In this document: piece by piece, positions 9,058-24,670 of the stretch
How positions within the stretch are numbered: position 1 is the stretch's first letter
Layout of the letters: each line of letters opens with the position of its first letter
NCBI GenBank assembly: GCA_030295235.1
Contig: AP026130.1
Location: forward strand, 434,001 to 498,000
Origin: Fistulifera solaris
Lineage: Eukaryota
Reading direction: 5' to 3'
DNA length: 64,000 bases
The notes under the pieces: generated by a model
What the model was told of the DNA's origin: nothing
Databases searched by the model: none
The model's input: the letters and a program-made list of their open reading frames with translations, nothing else
Made by a program: the position numbers and the translations under genes

Positions 9058-9770
9058 TTCTTCAATTGCAAGCGTTATGACCACTTTTAGTCAAGACAAA
9101 TGATAAGACGATGCAAACAGAAACAGAAAGGAATGATTAAATCGAAGAAAGAAAAAATGAAAAATGAAAACGCGATGCAGCGAGAAAAACATTTTCTGCC
9201 TCTGTCGTCGTACCGGTAATAAAACGCTGTGGTCTTTTGTGACTCAAACTCGTGAATGCCTCTTTTGTACATCGATCGACCGATCCCGATCGACACGTCA
9301 TTTTTTTTTAATAGTATAAATAATATTATTCCTATTAATTGCCTAACCGTCAGGATGTAATCTTGTCATTCGACTGAATTTTTTTTTTTTTAAAACGAGT
9401 AGAATAAAATCCTAAATATTTATTCCTAATTTTCCTGAAATGCGGATGCTTTTTCGACATTTGACTGAATTTTCCACTGGTTTTTCTCTTTTGGCACAAA
9501 CAATTTATTTTTCATCTCAATTTTTCACATATATTTCAGTCCGACACTTCGTTGAGTAATCTTTGGTTCTAACTCTCTAGCCTTAGTGCGTCATTATTAT
9601 TTTCGCAATAGAACAATAAAAGTCTCGTCGACGCCGTCGTCGCTTCATTAACTCGTTCATTACATCCTTCAAGAAAGGATAAGAGCTGTTGTAATACTCA
9701 ATAAGACCGGCATCATTAAGCCTGCACACGATAGGGAGAGCGAAAGCAACGGACAGCTACCTTCCGAAAA

Positions 9771-10555
9771 ATGATACGACTACATTCAATTTTTCTTCTG
9801 GCACTTTTTTTGTTCTCCGTTTCTCATGGATTTCATACTATTCACCGACAACCAATCTCTTTTCAAAATGTTAAACAGCGATCTATTGGTTCATCATTGT
9901 ACATGGGTCCCGAAGAAGCTTGGGCAGCTTACAATACAGCACTACAGACGGATCCTTTGATCACAAAAAGTATTACAGCATCAGTAATTTTAGGAGCCGC
10001 GGACTTGACGGGTCAAGCGCTCGAAAATCGATCCAAAATCTCCTCCTCTATCGATTGGGCACGATCGGCTCGATTTGCCTTTTTCGGTCTTGTATTACAA
10101 GCGCCTTGGAATCATTTTTATTACTTGTTGTTGGATGGTGTCCTTCCTCCGACCGAAGATCCATTTACGGCCACGAATTTCCTCAAAGTCGTCATTGATC
10201 AAGGACTACAAGCTCCTTTATTTACAATTCTGATTTTTGTATTTTTGGGGGCTTTGGAAGGGAAACAATTGGAGGCTATTCAGCAACAATTGCAGAAGGA
10301 TTACAAAAACACGATGCTGGCCAATTGTAAGTCTTGCATGCATGCTTGGGTGTGATGGAAGAGTTTTCCTCCTTTTCTTACTTCTTGTATTGTTGTTTCT
10401 ATGTATCGATAGGGAAAGTATTCATTCCAGCCACGGCAATCAACATAGGCTTCGTTCCACCCATCTTTCGAGTGTTATTTCTAAATTTGGTGTTCTTTGG
10501 GTGGTCTATCTACCTTTCGCTATTGTTGAACAAGGACGAGAGTGAGCAATCATGA
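9771..10555 (+). CDS. Mpv17/PMP22 family membrane protein with a signal/plastid presequence
   Basis: PLITKSITAS...GAADLTGQ, DWARSARF, KVVIDQ, ANWKVFIPA. Intron 10327-10412. N-terminal signal peptide ending VSHG-F. Confidence 0.88.
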
Positions 10556-11993: not shown

Positions 11994-12683
11994 ATGAGTT
12001 TTCCTCCAGATGATGCGGAAAATGAATGGGAATACATCAATGGCGAAACAAGGCCTCTTCTTAGAAACGATCGAAAAGTCGCCGTGGGAGGAGACGAATC
12101 TGATGCGGCTAGTGAAAACCGTGCTGCCAAAACAAGTCTCTGGGATCGTTACTGCGAATTACTAGAGACTCATCCGCTTTTTGTGAAGAGCGTTACCGCT
12201 CTTTTCATCGTTGGTAGCGGTGATCTTTGTGCGCAAGGAGTAGAGCATCTCCGGGGAACGAACCACAGTGCGAGCGTAGATTGGCTTCGGGTCGCTCGAT
12301 TTGGTGCAATTGGCTTCTTCGGAGCTCCGTGGAGTCATTATTACTTTTCCTTCCTGGACCATTACTTGCCCCCGACTGAAAAACCGTTTACACGAAGAAC
12401 TTTTGTCAAAGTTTTGATCGATCAATTCATTCAAGCTCCAATTCTCCTCTTGTTGATGATCAGCGGTCTTAGCTTACTGCAGCTAAATGGAATCGAGGGA
12501 GTAAAGAAATCAGTCCGAGATACATTTTGGACCAGCTTAGTTGCAAACTGGAAATTCTGGATCACGGCCTCCTTCATTAATTTGGCGTTTGTGAGGCCAG
12601 AGTTTCGCGTATTGTTTTTGAACTGTGGGTTCTTGATATGGATAATTATTTTATCCATCATTTTGAATAGTGAATCCACTTAG
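11994..12683 (+). CDS. Mpv17/PMP22 family membrane protein (second paralog, no signal peptide)
   Basis: HPLFVKSVTA...GDLCAQ, DWLRVARF, KVLIDQ and ANWKFW motifs; intronless. Confidence 0.9.
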   Translation: MSFPPDDAENEWEYINGETRPLLRNDRKVAVGGDESDAASENRAAKTSLWDRYCELLETHPLFVKSVTALFIVGSGDLCAQGVEHLRGTNHSASVDWLRVARFGAIGFFGAPWSHYYFSFLDHYLPPTEKPFTRRTFVKVLIDQFIQAPILLLLMISGLSLLQLNGIEGVKKSVRDTFWTSLVANWKFWITASFINLAFVRPEFRVLFLNCGFLIWIIILSIILNSEST

Positions 12684-13195: not shown

Positions 13196-14165
13196 ATGTC
13201 TTTCGAAACTATGATGGAACGCGCGAAAAGCGCCGATGGCTTTCTCGCTGCGCTCGATCAAAGCGGTGGAAGCACCCCGAAGGCCTTAAAGATCTACGGC
13301 GTCCCCGATGATGTAAGTTGCGACTCGTCTTATAATTCAAAATAGCGTGTGTCCTCAATATAGTATCTTTGTATCTTATCTATCAGGCGTATGTCAGTGG
13401 GGAGGAGTCGATGTACGAAATGGTGCACGCCATGCGTAGCCGTATCATCACGGCAAAACCCTTCACAGGAGAAAAGATCCTCGGGGCCATCCTGTTCGAG
13501 AACACAATGGATCGCGAGATCGAAGGATCCCCACCGGGCAATATCTCTGGGAGAAGAAAAACATCATTCCTTTCATCAAGATTGATAAGGGTCTAGCAGA
13601 TGAGGAAAACGGCGTGCAGTTGATGAAGCCCATTCCAGGTCTGGAAGACCTACTCAAACGCGCAAAGGCAAAAGGATTTTTCGGTACCAAGATGAGATCG
13701 GTAATCAACAGCGCCAATGAACAGGGAATCAAGGCTATTGTGGACCAACAGTTCGCTATCGGAAAGCAAATCATTTCCTTCGGTTTGGTGCCTATCATTG
13801 AGCCCGAAGTCAACATTAAGGCCGACGATAAAGAGCTCTGTGAAGACATCCTCAAAAGTCGTATCATGGAACAACTCGACCAGCTCGGAGATGACGAAAA
13901 GGTGATGCTCAAGCTCACGCTCCCGACAAAGGTGAATCACTACAGAGAATGCATTGACCATCCCAAAGTAGTTCGTGTTGTAGCCTTGAGCGGAGGGTAC
14001 AGTCGTGATGAAGCGAATGAGATCCTGGCAAAACAAAAAGGAATGATCGCTAGTTTTTCGCGTGCTCTAGCGGAGGGATTGGTGTACGGCTCGAGCGATG
14101 AAGAGTACGAAAGTGTACTGGCCAAATCAATTGATGCTATCTATGAAGCCTCCAAGTCCGGGTAG
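13196..14165 (+). CDS. FBA4: Class I fructose-bisphosphate aldolase, bacterial (Staphylococcus-like) type, no presequence (cytosolic FBA4-like)
   Basis: [45 protein letters not shown] (Schiff-base Lys), ALSGGY, ASFSRAL. Intron 13313-13386. One G missing near 13525 (expected [13 protein letters not shown]). Confidence 0.92.
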
Positions 14166-14210
14166 AAGGTAGAAGCACCCTTGCTACCAACATAAGTCAA
14201 CCTGATAGAC

Positions 14211-15413
14211 TTACTTAGCAATGGTTCCATTTATCTTTTTCCATTCTTCCAAATACTTGGCTACCAAATGTATTTGCAGGTCATCTTTGAAGGCCTCTTC
14301 ATTCAAATCTCGATACCCGGATATTTTCGCAGGTACACCGCTGACAATAGCAAGTGGTGGGACTGGCTTAGTAACAATCGACTTGGCCGTTACAACGGCA
14401 CCATCACCCACGGGGATGTTTCCTAGAATTGTGCCCCCGTCTTGAACAATTACTCCATTTCCAATTTTGGGGTGCCGATCTCCCCTCTCCTTCCCCGTTC
14501 CGCCTAACGTCACACCCTCTGCCAGCGACGTATCATTTCCCACCACAGCAGTTTCTCCAATCACAACCCCGGCGCCGGTACGTAGATAAATCGAGCTTCC
14601 CATGGTGCATGCGGGATGAATATCGGCGGAATAGATCCGACTCACCTTCGATTGCATGTAGTAGGCTAGGGCTGTGCGCCCGGCTCGCCACAGTCGAGAA
14701 CCGAGACGATAGCAAACCAATGCTTGAAAGCCATTGTGGAATAAGATTGCGAGCATAGCACTTTCTACCGAAGGACTTCGTGTAGCGACAGCTTCCAAAT
14801 CCAGCCGAATACAAGCCTCGTCCTCGGCAAATAAATTTTCCAAGAAAAGGTTTTTGATAGCCGGAGCGGGAATCAATTCGGTTTCGATACGATGCGATAT
14901 TATTGTGCAAATAGCTTCCAAAAGAGTCGTTTGTGATAATATTCCTTGATAGACTTGAGGTCCAGCTTCGGGTTCTACTTCCAAAACCGCCCTCGCTTCC
15001 ATTTTGACTTGCTCCCAAAATGGATCGTATTTCTCATTCTTTTCCAACTGCTTACGAGAATAATCTAAAAACTCCTGCCAGTCATGATCGGACGAGAAGA
15101 TGACTTGCGATCGATAGGGATTCAGCGTCCTACTATTGCGTAATGAAACATTCATGGTCACTGGAGATGTCGGCACTCTTTCGAAATCATCTGCTGTAGT
15201 TCCAATGCCTGCTTCGAAAGTAGGAATTGATGAATTGAGTGGTTTAGGAGAAGACCCAGAGATAGAGGATGAAAAGAGCTCCATTCGCTTCAGTTTCAGG
15301 TTCCGATGACATCGAGAAGCAGAAATCGGTTGTCGGAGTAGCAGGGAATCGGAACACCGCAATATTGTTAGCAACGCGATCGTAAGAATCGCTTTCCGTA
15401 AATGCGTTTTCAT
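14211..15413 (-). CDS. Serine O-acetyltransferase-like protein with signal/transit peptide; catalytic Asp-His replaced
   Basis: SATase N-terminal helical domain, DIHPA, VIGETAVVG, VTLGGTGK..GDRHPKIG, GVPAK. The canonical LDHxTG reads LRTGAG. Confidence 0.88.
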   Translation of the reverse strand: MKTHLRKAILTIALLTILRCSDSLLLRQPISASRCHRNLKLKRMELFSSSISGSSPKPLNSSIPTFEAGIGTTADDFERVPTSPVTMNVSLRNSRTLNPYRSQVIFSSDHDWQEFLDYSRKQLEKNEKYDPFWEQVKMEARAVLEVEPEAGPQVYQGILSQTTLLEAICTIISHRIETELIPAPAIKNLFLENLFAEDEACIRLDLEAVATRSPSVESAMLAILFHNGFQALVCYRLGSRLWRAGRTALAYYMQSKVSRIYSADIHPACTMGSSIYLRTGAGVVIGETAVVGNDTSLAEGVTLGGTGKERGDRHPKIGNGVIVQDGGTILGNIPVGDGAVVTAKSIVTKPVPPLAIVSGVPAKISGYRDLNEEAFKDDLQIHLVAKYLEEWKKINGTIAK

Positions 15414-15685
15414 GTTAGGCCTCTCACAAACAAAGAATTAATTAGACTTCTGCATTCCCTTGAACGAGTTGTTGTTATTATTGTTCATTTTCGAAAAACA
15501 AGGTGATGTTTGCTTGTCTCATTCGCAGCCGCAATTCAAGGCCGCAATTCGCTGCATGATATCCTCTGAAAAGTACTCGCTAGGGTTAGGCTATCTATAT
15601 AGCTCTAAACCCTTCATTTTTATCACTTTCGGCTGCAACTAAGACATAGCTATCTCGAAACTTCAACATTACTTCTCATTGTTAT

Positions 15686-16903
15686 TTACTGAGCGGCAGC
15701 ATAAGCGTCAATGACTTCCTGAACGTCGTTTTTGGATCCCATAATGACAGGAACGCGTTGGTGAACCACTTCGGGGGAGATTTCCATGACACGTTCTTTA
15801 CCCGTAGTTGAAAGTCCTCCCGCTTGCTCGACAATGAAGGACATGGGGGCACCTTCATACAATAAACGCAGCTTTCCGTTGGGATTCTTCTTGTCGCCAG
15901 GATATCCAAAGACACCACCGTAAAGAAGGGTTCGGTGAACATCACCGACCATGGATCCAATGTAACGGCTGGAGAATTTCTTTCCGGATTTTCCTTTTCC
16001 AGCTTTCCACTTAGCTACCGTCTCTTGGAGAGGCTTGTCCCAGTTGGGTGTGTTGGCCTCATTAAAAGAAATGATCGATGATTCTTCGGGGATCTTAATA
16101 TCCGGATGACTCAACACAAATTCACCTAGATTCTCATCCAACGTGAATCCATAAGTTCCCGATCCCAGCGTCAAGACCAAGAAAGTCGACGAGGAGTACA
16201 GACAGTAAGCCGCCGCTACTAAGTTGGTACCGGGCTGGAGAGTGTTCGCCAAGCACTGGGCTTCCTGCTCGGTGCAGTCTTCACCGACGCAGTCGGGGTC
16301 GATGGCACAGTTTTCGTCGTGTTCGTAGATTCCAATAATGGTTCCGGTAGGGATACCGGCATCCACGTTCGAAGATCCATCCAAAGGATCAAAAACCGCC
16401 ACATATCGTTCGCCTTCATCAATCAGCACACCTTTGTTGGCACCACTCAGATCGACAGGAACGTCCTCTTCTTCCGAAGCCAAAACACCAAGACGACCCG
16501 TGAAACGAAGAGCCCGCTTCAAAAGATCGTTTGTGATAACATCCAACTTCTTCTGATCCTCTCCTTGCACATTCACTTCACCCTGATAGCCCAGAGTCTC
16601 ACTGGAAGGAAGTTGCGATCGCTTGACGAGATTCGAAATGGCTTTGCAGGCCGTCTCGATCGCCCCGAACAAGACCGTCAATTCCGTGATATCTGGGTTG
16701 AGCATGGCAACTTCGGACATGAATCGCTTCAACGTGACTCCGGTCGTTTCACAGACTTCATCAAAGACGGGCGCCTTGGTCTTTTGCGGAGCCGACGCGA
16801 CGTGCAGGGCGGTCGACGATGCACGGAACGGGCGGCTGACCGAGAAAGCCGACAACGTCGAAGTCGTGCTCACCAGGAGAACTGTAAAGAGATTCAATTT
16901 CAT
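15686..16903 (-). CDS. FBP: Plastid fructose-1,6-bisphosphatase (paralog A, intronless)
   Basis: LSA-F presequence; GEDQKKLDV, ASEE, FDPLDGSSN, RYIGSMVGDVHRTLLYGG, GKLRLLYE; Cys-rich redox loop. Confidence 0.96.
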   Translation of the reverse strand: MKLNLFTVLLVSTTSTLSAFSVSRPFRASSTALHVASAPQKTKAPVFDEVCETTGVTLKRFMSEVAMLNPDITELTVLFGAIETACKAISNLVKRSQLPSSETLGYQGEVNVQGEDQKKLDVITNDLLKRALRFTGRLGVLASEEEDVPVDLSGANKGVLIDEGERYVAVFDPLDGSSNVDAGIPTGTIIGIYEHDENCAIDPDCVGEDCTEQEAQCLANTLQPGTNLVAAAYCLYSSSTFLVLTLGSGTYGFTLDENLGEFVLSHPDIKIPEESSIISFNEANTPNWDKPLQETVAKWKAGKGKSGKKFSSRYIGSMVGDVHRTLLYGGVFGYPGDKKNPNGKLRLLYEGAPMSFIVEQAGGLSTTGKERVMEISPEVVHQRVPVIMGSKNDVQEVIDAYAAAQ

Positions 16904-17331
16904 ATTGATGAACACAGCAACAAAGGTTGGGTGATTATCAAATCCAGCAGAGATCTGCTTTCTCACGTTCCTTCGTCGAAATGGCGGACGTATTTGCCAA
17001 AAACATTGTGACGGACGTAAGTCAAAATAATGGCATCTGTTTTTTCTATCGTTCAATGTGTACAAAAAATGAAAGAAACGGATGAAGGACAGACGTTATT
17101 TAATTCTTTACTTTCTATTTAACAGTCAATGGCATCCGGTAATGGTTCGAGCAAAAGGACGAGAAAAGGATAGCGCAAGTATGTGGCGAGTGTACTTGTA
17201 TGTCGTCGACAGCTTTCTCGAGTCGCGACGACCTTTTATGATAATGAATAACAATTGCTGTTGTTGTTTGTCTCTCAACAAGTTGCTATAGAGAAGCCTC
17301 ATCTCGTTTCCTTTCTATTATCGCTATCAAC

Positions 17332-18643
17332 ATGAAGTTCAACTTGGTGGTATCGCTTCTCGTATGCACGGCATCTCATGCCTTTGTTTCTCAATCGTCA
17401 CCCCGACCCTTCGTTCGGGCGTCTTCGCCAGTCTTTGCCACCGTCGAAGCCCCAGTGGCTCGAAAGACCAAGGCACCCGTCTTTGATGAAGTCTGCGAGA
17501 CTACGGGTGTTACTTTATCGCGCTTCATGAATGAAGTTGCTATGTTGAATCCGGAATTGAAAGAACTCGCCATTTTGTTCGGAGCCATTGATACTGCGTG
17601 CAAGGCCATTACCAACCTCGTCAAGCGATCGCAATTGCCTTCCAGTGAGACTCTGGGTTATCAGGGTGAAGTGAATGTGCAAGGAGAGGATCAGAAGAAG
17701 TTGGATGTTATCACAAACGATCTTTTGAAGCGGGCTCTTCGTTTCACGGGTCGTCTAGGTGTTTTGGCTTCGGAAGAAGAGGACGTTCCTGTCGATCTGA
17801 TCGGAAATGATAAGAGCGATAGTCGAGATATTTTGATCGAAGAAGGCGAACGATATGTTGCCGTCTTTGATCCCTTGGATGGATCATCCAACGTGGATGC
17901 CGGTATCCCCACAGGAACCATTATCGGAATCTACGAGCACGACGAAAACTGCGTCGTCGATCCGGATGTGAGTGATTGGGAGAACTACCAAGCTTAAGTG
18001 TCTTTTGCTTCTCTAACCTTTAGCTGCTTACTTTTGACAGTGCCTTGGAGATGATTGCTCGGAACAGGAAGCCCAGTGCCTGGCGAACACGCTTCAGCCC
18101 GGAACGAACTTGGTCGCTGCTGCTTACTGTCTGTACTCCTCGTCGACCATCCTAGCCTTGACTTTAGGAAACGGTGTTTACATGTTTACTTTGGATGAAA
18201 CCATCGGAGAGTTTGTCCTTTCCAAGCCCAATGTCAAGATCCCCGATGACGCTACGATCTACTCGTTCAACGAGGCCAACTTGGAAATGTGGGACGCTCC
18301 GATGCGAAAATGCGTAGAATCGTGGCGCATGGGAACGGGTAAATCCGGTAAGACTTTCTCGAGCCGTTACATTGGATCCATGGTGGGTGATGTGCACCGC
18401 ACATTGTTGTACGGAGGCGTCTTTGGATACCCGGGGGACACCAAGAACCCCAACGGAAAGCTGCGCCTGTTGTACGAAGGTGCTCCCATGTCTTTCATCA
18501 TGGAACAGGCGGGAGGCATTTCTACGACGGGAAGAAAGCGCGTGATGGAGATTACCCCCGAAGTGGTTCACCAACGTGTCCCTGTCATCATGGGCTCCAA
18601 GAACGTGGTTCAGGAAGTGATTGACGCCTACGCGGCCGAGTAA
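17332..18643 (+). CDS. FBP: Plastid fructose-1,6-bisphosphatase (paralog B)
   Basis: SHA-F presequence; same FBPase motifs as paralog A. Intron 17968-18040 lies inside the Cys loop. Confidence 0.96.
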
Positions 18644-19121
18644 GATACTTACTTTTAGTAATAATGCATTTCATTACAGGCAGGTTATGTCATTAGCCAG
18701 GAACTTGAATACTAATATTTGTTAGCTTACCAGAGGCTATTTTAAAGATGAAGATAGAGAGAGATCGGACCGTCCTCCTAGTTTGTGTGTTTGTGTTTCG
18801 TGTTTCGTTGCTGCGAAAATCTGCAGCCAGAAAGGCTTACGTCATTGACCTGCTGTTGTGTGTCGTTTTGTACTGTCGACGATGAGATCCAAAAGACACG
18901 ACGGTGCGTTGCACGCAAACGTTGTCTACGTATCTTTTGTACTTATGGCGTCTGTCTTTTGCCAGGTTGATGGCAAAAGGACTGACGTCTTGAGAATGCG
19001 CGGAGGAGCCTACGTGTTCGTCAGTTTGGTGAAAAATGTCGTCCGTCGGACAAATAAAAAGCAAGAAAGTTTGTTTCGCAGACGCCATTCCTTTGCGACG
19101 CACTTTCACACCCCCACCAAG

Positions 19122-20332
19122 ATGAAGTTCGTTGCCGCTCTCTTTCTCTTTGTGAACTCGGCTACTGCTTTCAGCCTGAGTTCTCCTGCTTTCGCTGCAC
19201 CCAAGACCTCTTCAACGCAACTCATGGGTGAATTCGGTGCTTCCTCCACTTCGTTCTACACCACCACGGAGAAAAAAGATTCTTACGAGAGTTTGGACGA
19301 TGTTTTGAGCACCAAGTGCAGTGATCCCAAAGTTCGTCATGTCATCAAGGACATGCTCAACGTATGCGCCGAAATCACGGAGGCTTTGCGAACTGCCCTT
19401 GTGACTGTGGAAGGTAGCATGAACGATTTCGGAGACGCGCAGCTCAGTGTTGACGTAAGTACTGCAACGCGCTCCGACGTGACAGTTTGGCAGAATACAG
19501 TCCCTCACACGCCATATCTTCACTCCTTTTTTACTTATCATAGGTAATTGCCGATAACTTGCTATGGGATGCTGTCAAGCGCTCTTCGGTGGTCCGTGAA
19601 GGAGCTTCGGAAGAAGACCCCATTGTTCGTGACGTTGACGAAGGCGGTGAGGGTGAATTCACTGTCTGCTGGGATCCCTTGGATGGTTCTTCGATTGTGG
19701 ATAACAACTGGGCTGTAGGAACCATGATCGGTATCTGGCCCAAGCGCACTGGACTGATCGGAGCGACGGGCCGTGATCAGGTCACTTCCTTGGTGGCCCT
19801 GTACGGTCCCCGAACGACAGTTTTGGTGGCCCTCGACGACGGAACGTATGAATTCAGCTACGGTTGCACACCCGAGGGGTGCCAGCTCCCGGATGGATCT
19901 TGGGAACCCTGGATCTGCTCTCGTCACAAAATTCAAATCAAGCCCGACTGCAAGATCTTTTCACCGGCCAACTTGCGTGCGGCACAAGATGTGGCAGGAT
20001 ACAAGAAACTCGTCGATCATTACATGGAAAACCGTTACACTCTTCGTTACTCGGGAGGTTTGGTGCCAGATGTTTACCAACAGTTTACCAAGGAACAGGG
20101 TGTCTTCTCCAACCCCACTTCGTCTAGCAGCCCTGCCAAGCTCCGTCTTGCTTTTGAAGCCGCTCCTTTCGGTCTTTTGGTTGAGAAATCCGGCGGAAAG
20201 ACCTCAGATGGTGTCACTGGTGGATCCATCTTGGATGTTCAGATCAACTCCGTGGACCAGCGTACTGCCCTCTGCATTGGATCGGCCAACGAGGTAAACC
20301 GATTCAACGAATTCCTCAGCCTTGGTAACTAA
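19122..20332 (+). CDS. SBP: Plastid sedoheptulose-1,7-bisphosphatase
   Basis: ATA-F presequence; FGDAQLSVDV, WDPLDGSSIVDNNWAVGT, YGPRTT, YTLRYSGGLVPDV, AKLRLAFEAAP (SBPase-type rather than FBPase-type signatures). Intron 19455-19543. Confidence 0.92.
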
Positions 20333-23482: not shown

Positions 23483-24103
23483 CTAGCCAAAGATTGTGCA
23501 AGTCAAAATGCCAATCACAAAGAAAACCCCCAAGCGAACTCCAGTGACGGCAACGGTACCCGCCGCGATTCGAGTCGGCTGCTCTCGAATATCCTCTAGA
23601 TAAAGGTCCAAATTTGGTCGCAAGAGAAAGAATTCTACCAATGCGTACGCAATAACAATCGTCGGAATCTGATCAACCACATTCAAAAAGCGAGCCGACC
23701 ATTCGACTTGCGCCGCAAACGCCTCTGGTGTTTCCGCCGGCAAGCCCATGACGTGTGTTGGTAAAATACCCCGTGTCGGTGAAAATCCTGGCAAAAGCGT
23801 CTGTGCGTGTATGGCAGCGCCATCCACATCGGCAATGCCCAAATCCGCCAATGCCTTGGCCGAGGGAGCAATGGACTTTCCTGCTGATAAGTAGGGATCG
23901 GGAGGGCCCCATAAGGGCTGCGTGTGTTCGGTAGCAGGCTTGAGTAGTGCTACATTGAAAGAAGATAATGGAGATGCCTGTAAAAAAGAATGCGATCTTT
24001 GATTTTGAAGATGAAGAAATGCGCTAGTTTCCGCCAATGTGAACCATAGCATCCACAGAGCTCTTAAAGTCGTGGGTTTTGTAAAGTAGTATTGCGTCGA
24101 CAT
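23483..24103 (-). CDS. Plastid-targeted hypothetical membrane protein
   Basis: 206-aa ORF with TSA-F presequence and two C-terminal hydrophobic segments. Confidence 0.75.
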   Translation of the reverse strand: MSTQYYFTKPTTLRALWMLWFTLAETSAFLHLQNQRSHSFLQASPLSSFNVALLKPATEHTQPLWGPPDPYLSAGKSIAPSAKALADLGIADVDGAAIHAQTLLPGFSPTRGILPTHVMGLPAETPEAFAAQVEWSARFLNVVDQIPTIVIAYALVEFFLLRPNLDLYLEDIREQPTRIAAGTVAVTGVRLGVFFVIGILTCTIFG

Positions 24104-24670
24104 GTTCCGTGGTGATAGGGAGTTGTTACCTTTCTAACATAAAGCGAACTGGAAAACGACAGATAATGCGCGCCCGTATGCGATGTCGAAGAAACTTTAG
24201 TCTTCGATTCAACGTTGCGAAGCGAGTCAATTCGAATAGTTAGAATCGATCAGTTTTTAGAAATCAATTATACGGAGTCCGGAGTAATAAACATCAACGT
24301 TGATCAATGAGGGCGAACCGACAAGCGACGCAATAAAGCAGTGTGTCAAAAGGATGAAAAAGTAAAACCCGCCCCGAAGCTACGGCCAGACGGTTCTATG
24401 TTCGTGCTTGAAGCGTCAATCATCACGAATAATCGCGGATCATCACCTTGCAACAAACTTAGGTTGCCTGGTATCTGGAACGTAAATCAAATGCTAAGTA
24501 CTGACTATTAGATGCAATGTCAAGCGTTGCAATATACCGTGCCCAGAGATATTTAGAGCGAGGGTGTCGCAAGGACCTAGTTTCGATGGTGTTGTTGCTG
24601 GTGTCTCGAAAAATCTTACACGAGAAAAAAAAAAATAGATCGGAAACGCATAAGGTTACCTCGTGTTTAT

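Follow-up and report, generated by a model that had tools for sequence, protein, structure and literature searches.

The question raised by this locus is whether genes whose enzymes act on the same sugar bisphosphates lie side by side in a diatom as one co-regulated pathway cluster or as an inherited block. The window is a stretch of 64,000 nucleotides of Fistulifera solaris (contig AP026130.1; C11:434001-498000). It contains consecutive genes for a fructose-bisphosphate aldolase, a serine-acetyltransferase-like (SAT-like) protein, two fructose-1,6-bisphosphatases (FBPases A and B) and a sedoheptulose-1,7-bisphosphatase (SBPase). A sequence-only reading had taken them for a co-regulated carbon-partitioning locus. 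In this study, we found that the region is likely an inherited gene block instead of one co-regulated pathway cluster. On the evidence given below, we lean towards an old FBPase–FBPase–SBPase trio for plastid steps within such a block, beside which rearrangement probably brought the aldolase and the SAT-like gene. The features are as follows.

13196..14165, plus strand: class I fructose-bisphosphate aldolase of the bacterial type, FBA4 counterpart, no presequence; intron 13313-13386 (PF00274; PDB 2iqt).
14211..15413, minus strand: serine-acetyltransferase-like protein with a signal-peptide-like N-terminus, likely a pseudoenzyme (PF06426; alignment to E. coli CysE 1t3d).
15686..16903, minus strand: FBPase A, plastid-type presequence, intronless, clade A (PF00316 and PF18913; best PDB matches 5iz1/1d9q).
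16904..17331, no strand: divergent spacer of 428 bp between the two FBPase start codons, candidate promoter (sequence; alignable to the homoeologue).
17332..18643, plus strand: FBPase B, plastid-type presequence, intron 17968-18040 seen as a joint, clade B (PF00316 and PF18913).
19122..20332, plus strand: SBPase, bipartite-type presequence of its own (ATA-F), C-x4-C insertion at about residues 218-233; intron 19455-19543 (100% to P0001; fold and sequence matches).

The five genes were confirmed in this order with spacers of 45, 272, 428 and 478 bp, and four of the five encode enzymes acting on fructose-1,6-bisphosphate (FBP) or sedoheptulose-1,7-bisphosphate (SBP), so that genes of linked steps are adjacent. 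The order, the spacing and the enzyme identities proposed from the letters alone were borne out, the last by Pfam families and by PDB and fold matches. The head-to-head FBPases 428 bp apart, with SBPase in tandem, were likewise found; the bidirectional promoter between them is a candidate, seen as geometry only. Short spacers are unexceptional here, the next gene, EngA, following at 157 bp. ACGT-core words occur in both spacers, from which we draw no inference. The assembly (51.7 Mb, 62 contigs) contains both homoeologous sets, and the homoeologous contig C12 carries the same five-gene block in the same order at 87-89% identity. In the public annotation, SBPase, FBPase B, FBPase A and aldolase carry successive numbers (GAX10229-10232 and GAX22363-22366). 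Public contigs show each of the three introns as a GT..AG joint; these four public sequence runs, of which three contain spliced joints, consist of contigs and give neither a ranking of genes nor evidence on read-through.

The remaining FBPase families of the genome lie on separate contigs (C19/20, C45/46 and C5/6), as do three class II aldolase pairs and a second class I aldolase pair (C9/10). The rough chance of SBPase adjoining any FBPase unit was 8e-4, and that of any of five aldolases lying at most two genes away was 2e-3; both figures assume 10,000 genes per haploid set and are uncorrected for a pattern picked afterwards. At the start of C45 there is a 9.8-kb inverted duplicate, 99.4% identical (L016/L017; C45:1-9786 and about 108001-117824). 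It holds a further FBPase paralogue, frameshifted in one copy, and is possibly an assembly artefact.

The core of this arrangement has been described previously in Phaeodactylum tricornutum. According to Kroth 2008 (PMC2173943), FBPC2 and SBP point the same way, with FBPC2 upstream by about 500 bases, and T. pseudonana is said to be similar. The supplement of that report places SBP (56467) at chr_1:115359-116604, FBPC2 (42456) at 117111-118554 and FBPC3 (31451) at 118907-120325, consecutively, and Fba4 at chr_1:95522-97171. The window has these three genes in the same succession. In both species, FBPase B and SBPase are in tandem, FBPase B preceding SBPase by about 0.5 kb, and beyond FBPase B the second FBPase comes after about another 0.35-0.43 kb. 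By position and not by sequence, FBPase A would be the counterpart of FBPC3. Two things differ from the P. tricornutum block: the SBPase of the window carries its own presequence while that of P. tricornutum has none, and the aldolase and SAT-like gene abut the FBPase pair in the window whereas FBA4 of P. tricornutum lies 18 kb from the trio, beyond SBP.

Scanning metagenomes yielded 59 SBPase loci, of which 44 with less than 1 kb upstream were dropped; the remaining 15 represent 13 distinct loci. FBPase was found 0.5-0.8 kb upstream of SBPase in four of the 13 (L036, L048, L079/82 and L066, which is P. tricornutum) and 2.9 kb away in one (L064/65), and it was not seen upstream in the other eight testable loci. 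The full head-to-head FBPase pair was present in L036, L048 and L079/82. In the FBPase tree, L036 and L048 grouped with Chaetoceros debilis and L082 with Amphora. In the two Chaetoceros-like loci, A instead of B adjoins SBPase, and the flanking genes differ. The linkage of FBPase and SBPase is thus conserved in further diatoms, both in metagenome loci and in the P. tricornutum coordinates, in keeping with the sequence-only reading.

The aldolase behaved differently. It was near SBPase in one of the 13 loci (L064), with only about five loci offering at least 7 kb on one side, and in L036 neither the 10 kb before SBPase nor the 8.8 kb after it contains an aldolase. Unrelated neighbours were also kept with SBPase, namely the membrane protein at 23486 (four loci), a BAF-like protein (three, including L036), a TPR protein (two), and EngA and a proteasome ATPase (one each). 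Linkage counts were 5/13 for FBPase-SBPase against 1/13 for the aldolase, four for the membrane protein and three for the BAF-like protein, most contigs being short. Since unrelated window neighbours also travel with SBPase, these gene orders suggest an old block of linked genes whose stablest part is the phosphatase trio. In these counts, the aldolase appears to be linked to SBPase no better than bystanders; unrelated genes stay with SBPase at least as often, which speaks against counting the aldolase in.

For the P. tricornutum counterparts, expression was taken from the supplementary data of two studies, PhaeoNet (PMC7596299) and that of Smith et al. 2016 (PMC5156380). The genes compared were FBA4, the SAT-like EG01815, the FBPase J9359 and the fused FBPase/SBPase model EG02409; correlations covered 49 samples and 16 genes, hand-chosen or incidental, of about 1,190 rows in this single species. 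In PhaeoNet, the four genes fell into the cyan, darkgrey, grey and darkmagenta modules, respectively, and plastid PGK, GAPC1 and TKT were all in blue. In the diel set of Smith et al., they were assigned to lightcyan, green, midnightblue and yellow. The four counterparts had a mean Spearman rho of 0.48 with one another and of 0.45 with four unlinked dark-up genes. GAPC1, PGK and TKT reached 0.89 among themselves, and the four counterparts were anti-correlated with these three (rho −0.39 to −0.86). Co-expression of the counterparts did not exceed background in P. tricornutum. Uncorrelated expression, one of the two outcomes named beforehand as refuting the cluster, was thus largely observed in this species.

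These results bear on the idea that all five genes form one co-regulated carbon-partitioning cluster of a cytosolic aldolase and plastid phosphatases, perhaps under a dusk or night programme. In the window, in Mayamaea and in L064 the aldolase is close to the trio, the uncorrected chance of adjacency is low, and in P. tricornutum the correlations are positive with a shared dark bias. However, an 18-kb gap separates FBA4 from the trio in P. tricornutum, no aldolase surrounds the L036 SBPase, the counterparts sit in different modules of two networks, and their correlation is not above that with unlinked dark-up genes; they run opposite to the light-up Calvin genes. In addition, the FBA4 protein is found in cytosolic strands without an iron response (PMC3245544, accessible part), and the middle gene is likely a dead SAT, unconnected to sugar phosphates. 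We regard one co-regulated locus including the aldolase as improbable.

In eukaryotic gene clusters of primary metabolism, such as the fungal GAL and nitrate-assimilation clusters, genes for linked steps are neighbours. The window resembles them in the adjacency of non-identical linked-step enzymes and in having a divergent gene pair. It differs in that its members belong to two compartments, three of its four enzymes come from one protein family, and the P. tricornutum counterparts show no co-expression above background.

Several observations weigh against the inherited-block reading. Each of the six correlations within the P. tricornutum set is above zero (0.18-0.65), and the dark-up class takes in three of the four genes, so the counterparts may be loosely co-regulated. 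The expression evidence comes from P. tricornutum alone, and its control consisted of four hand-picked genes instead of a random sample. EG02409 is a fused FBPase and SBPase model that mixes two signals, and J9359 is equated with FBPC3 and with FBPase A by position, not sequence. Regarding gene order, in L064 the aldolase and SAT-like gene lie next to each other in convergent orientation at a distance of 7 kb from SBPase, the Mayamaea aldolase and SBPase have tags three apart (MPSEU_000809000/000809300), and P. tricornutum retains the aldolase within 18 kb of the trio.

In the inherited-block reading, which we still favour, the trio, which keeps its 0.5-0.8 kb spacing in several lineages and is broken in others, would have come down from an early diatom, and the aldolase and the likely dead SAT would have moved beside it through local rearrangement. 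Each phosphatase would be imported into the plastid by its own presequence, the FBPases would be switched by thioredoxin at the pair equivalent to Cys153/Cys173, and the aldolase would act separately in the cytosol. Because the FBPases would be switched by thioredoxin, tight co-transcription with the Calvin cycle would not be needed.

A related explanation is that the trio alone is a selected coupled unit, held together by the divergent promoter, matched dosage and possibly mixed A/B tetramers, with the aldolase and SAT-like gene as passengers. As regards anatomy it is compatible with the inherited-block reading; the two diverge over the reason for the survival of the trio. FBPase is the commonest neighbour of SBPase (5/13 loci), but the other eight loci do not show it upstream. 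The trio spacing stays tight while the flanks turn over in L036 and L048. In Nitzschia inconspicua, the head-to-head FBPase pair persists as adjacent accessions (KAG7371935/6), yet SBPase is 15-16 accessions away, and FBPase A has decayed in L065. The two P. tricornutum models correlated at rho 0.34 only and were in different modules, and the SBPase of that species lacks a presequence. Selection on the trio as a unit is therefore conceivable, although we consider it doubtful.

The best PDB matches of both FBPases were chloroplast FBPases (moss 5iz1 and pea 1d9q). The loop insertion is present, and the Cys residues aligned to pea Cys153 and Cys173 in 1d9q are kept in both proteins, as in the moss enzyme; Cys153-Cys173 is the regulatory disulfide of pea FBPase (PMC3838966, accessible part). 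In contrast to the chloroplast enzymes 1d9q and 5iz1, the window FBPases have two additional loop Cys and lack Cys178. Diatom FBPase has been reported to be redox-regulated and weakly light-induced (Launay 2020, PMC7378808, accessible part). The B-type FBPases of L036:5745-7161(−) and L048:3200-4482(−) have a shortened redox loop without the two additional cysteines. Database proteins P0131, P0144 and P0220 are tandem FBPase repeats, either polyprotein-like or misassembled.

FBPase trees were built from 29 rows, with none dropped, and midpoint-rooted. A and B separated across centric-like and pennate diatoms with support of 92/99 in the mature-protein tree, and clade A had 99/98 in the C-terminal tree; the N-terminal tree was poorly resolved. 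FBPase B, the orthologue of P. tricornutum FBPC2, grouped in clade B with EEC51482 of that species. A shared 90% cluster had suggested FBPC2 as a second SBPase, which was ruled out, its sequence being that of an FBPase B orthologue. The trees indicate that the A/B duplication predates the centric/pennate divide. A recent A/B duplication is excluded by the tree, local near-identity being due to conversion. The sequence-only reading was right that the genes are not neighbours through a recent tandem duplication, given this old A/B split and the approximately 27% identity between SBPase and FBPase.

Conversion was examined by comparing FBPases A and B, which carry the two arms of an inverted repeat.

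16447..16588, minus strand: left arm in FBPase A, one mismatch flanked by 98 and 43 identical bases, inside the conversion tract 16447-16630.
17659..17800, plus strand: right arm in FBPase B, encoding the GEVNVQGEDQKKLDV...SEEED segment (sequence comparison).

On C11, A and B differed at 3 of 61 synonymous codons in the tract (coding-sequence positions 274-457) and at 109 of 233 outside (p 8e-11); the corresponding values on C12 were 1/61 and 112/232. Differences between homoeologues were even, at 10/61 in the tract and 43/287 outside. Among 12 sites where A and B of C11 share a base against C12, eight lie inside the tract. These comparisons indicate that the near-identity of A and B reflects gene conversion that postdates subgenome divergence. 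An assembly artefact is unlikely, as the tract variants of C11 and C12 differ and contigs from all four runs support two places. L036 and L048 each have nine exact A/B tracts of 31-101 bp, and the same comparison found none in L079/82. Crossing-over within such tracts may have flipped the pair in the Chaetoceros-like lineage. At L065:5167-5533(−), in the head-to-head position, FBPase A survives as a decayed remnant interrupted by stops and frameshifts, best preserved in the segment converted in F. solaris. The P. tricornutum block is described without mention of FBPase gene conversion in the accessible part of Kroth 2008.

The SBPase exon was 100% identical to the Fistulifera solaris SBPase protein (P0001). 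It matched solved SBPases (4ir8, 5iz3 and 7b2o) with E 2e-84 to 8e-74 against 2e-26 for FBPases, and the top 14 fold matches of its model were SBPase chains. Its N-terminus has a signal-peptide-like stretch ending in ATA-F. Among 120 homologues listed, 86 are full-length, and 81 of these have a presequence-like N-terminus by a crude hydrophobicity-plus-motif test; P. tricornutum and Mayamaea are among the five without one. Kroth 2008 left the plastid SBPase step of diatoms open, in its accessible part, as the sole P. tricornutum SBPase has no presequence. Because the window SBPase and most full-length homologues do show such an N-terminus, P. tricornutum looks like an exception.

The same report put forward the idea that SBPase piggy-backs into the plastid, with FBPase B and SBPase read as one transcript or fusion. 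The Phatr3 model EG02409, about 788 aa and labelled FBP/SBP, agrees with this. On the other hand, SBPase has its own presequence here and, by the crude test, in the 81 homologues, and the accessible text of Kroth 2008 reported no transcript support. P. tricornutum has an in-frame stop just ahead of the SBP start, and none of five homologues checked (four long FBPase matches and one SBPase) was an FBPase–SBPase fusion. We give piggy-backing hardly any credence. In L066:1470-2010, 540 bp separate the FBPC2 stop from the SBP start, with the in-frame stop directly before the SBP ATG; EG02409 may be a wrong merge.

The window SBPase shares its best-matching fold with plant and algal SBPase (5iz3 and 7b2o) and differs from them in lacking the Cys52/Cys57 pair and in having a C-x4-C insertion. 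The plant regulatory Cys52/Cys57 pair was found in none of the 95 homologues covering the loop, in line with an accessible statement that diatom SBPase lacks the plant regulatory cysteines (Launay 2020, PMC7378808). The insertion (GC[T/M]PxxC) was present in 116 of the 120 homologues listed and was modelled at a block pLDDT of about 80-88. In the window protein it reads YGCTPEGC...W.C at about residues 218-238 (about 19870-19925, plus strand). It is possible that the C-x4-C insertion serves as an alternative disulfide switch.

The aldolase matched PDB 2iqt with E 3e-101 and chloroplast aldolase with E 1e-12. Its P. tricornutum counterpart by sequence match and label is J42447, 'FBA4 I cyto'. 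FBA4 was located to cytosolic strands and showed no iron response in P. tricornutum (Allen et al. 2012, PMC3245544, accessible part). The window aldolase is of the same family and length and likewise has no presequence, and these features identify it as the cytosolic type. In the accessible part of that report, the localisation is demonstrated in P. tricornutum only, and the genomic position of FBA4 is not mentioned. Judged by presequences and by the localisation of FBA4, the cluster enzymes do not work in a single pathway and compartment; the contrast noted by the sequence-only reading, an aldolase without presequence beside phosphatases with plastid-type presequences, was confirmed. In this assembly, one missing base near 13524 shifts the aldolase reading frame, which that reading had overlooked. 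The frameshift is an assembly error, because the base is present in all four public runs and a full-length protein of 298 aa is on record (GAX10232); the same base rules out a pseudogene. The C12 homoeologues of the aldolase and SAT-like gene (L014) have single-base indels of their own, so frameshifts in this genome need checking against reads.

His158 has a catalytic role in CysE, and the C-terminal Ile serves the cysteine-synthase complex (PMC9547175). In the alignment to 1t3d, the SAT-like protein has Thr in place of His158 and Arg in place of Asp157 and keeps Asp143; its C-terminus, ...TIAK, lacks the C-terminal Ile. It thus has neither the His158 and Asp143 pair nor the C-terminal Ile of an active CysE. 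His158 is replaced in both homoeologues, in P. tricornutum EG01815 and in L064, and two further SAT pairs of this genome retain DHG. In a survey of 150 listed representatives, 149 covered the His158 site; among these matches, His was absent in 41/42 at 50% identity or more and in 28/107 below 50%. These results suggest that the SAT-like protein is likely a pseudoenzyme, enzymatically inactive, and belongs to a widespread His158-less subfamily of candidate regulatory pseudoenzymes. Its P. tricornutum counterpart is annotated SAT2. In that species, the SAT-like gene and FBA4 were correlated at rho 0.64, and both peak at 10 PM.

These details could be combined into a more elaborate picture. Here, the trio would have been kept by selection since before the centric/pennate split, and conversion would keep the catalytic N-terminal segments of the FBPases identical for mixed tetramers while their C-terminal halves diverge. 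SBPase would use the C-x4-C switch, and the SAT pseudoenzyme and aldolase would form a second, dusk-peaking pair. We consider this combination unlikely.

Other genes were noted around the block. Two Mpv17/PMP22 genes lie upstream of the aldolase on the plus strand (9735-10355 and 11997-12683); Mpv17 genes, possible orthologues of the window copies, also adjoin SBPase in L059, L069 and L074. The protein at 23486-24133, on the minus strand, has a plastid-type presequence and a hydrophobic C-terminus without a Pfam match, and it is near SBPase in L059, L064, L069 and L074.

Our literature search, with subscription journals outside its coverage, found no publication on this gene block in Fistulifera, on His-less diatom SAT, on conversion between diatom FBPases or on the presequence distribution of diatom SBPases. 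Because the core arrangement was published for P. tricornutum in 2008, the window block is a further instance of a known arrangement, and the co-regulation that would make a cluster striking was not seen in P. tricornutum. The cluster idea therefore adds little, and the side results on the SBPase presequence, FBPase conversion and SAT2 are useful to diatom specialists. The exchange of sequence between A and B through their opposed orientation, in three lineages or more, has consequences for gene trees, for the mapping of reads and for the design of knock-outs. A gene annotated SAT2 is probably inactive as an enzyme, which matters for metabolic models. Finally, the presequence on the window SBPase bears on the question raised by Kroth of how diatom plastids carry out the SBPase step.

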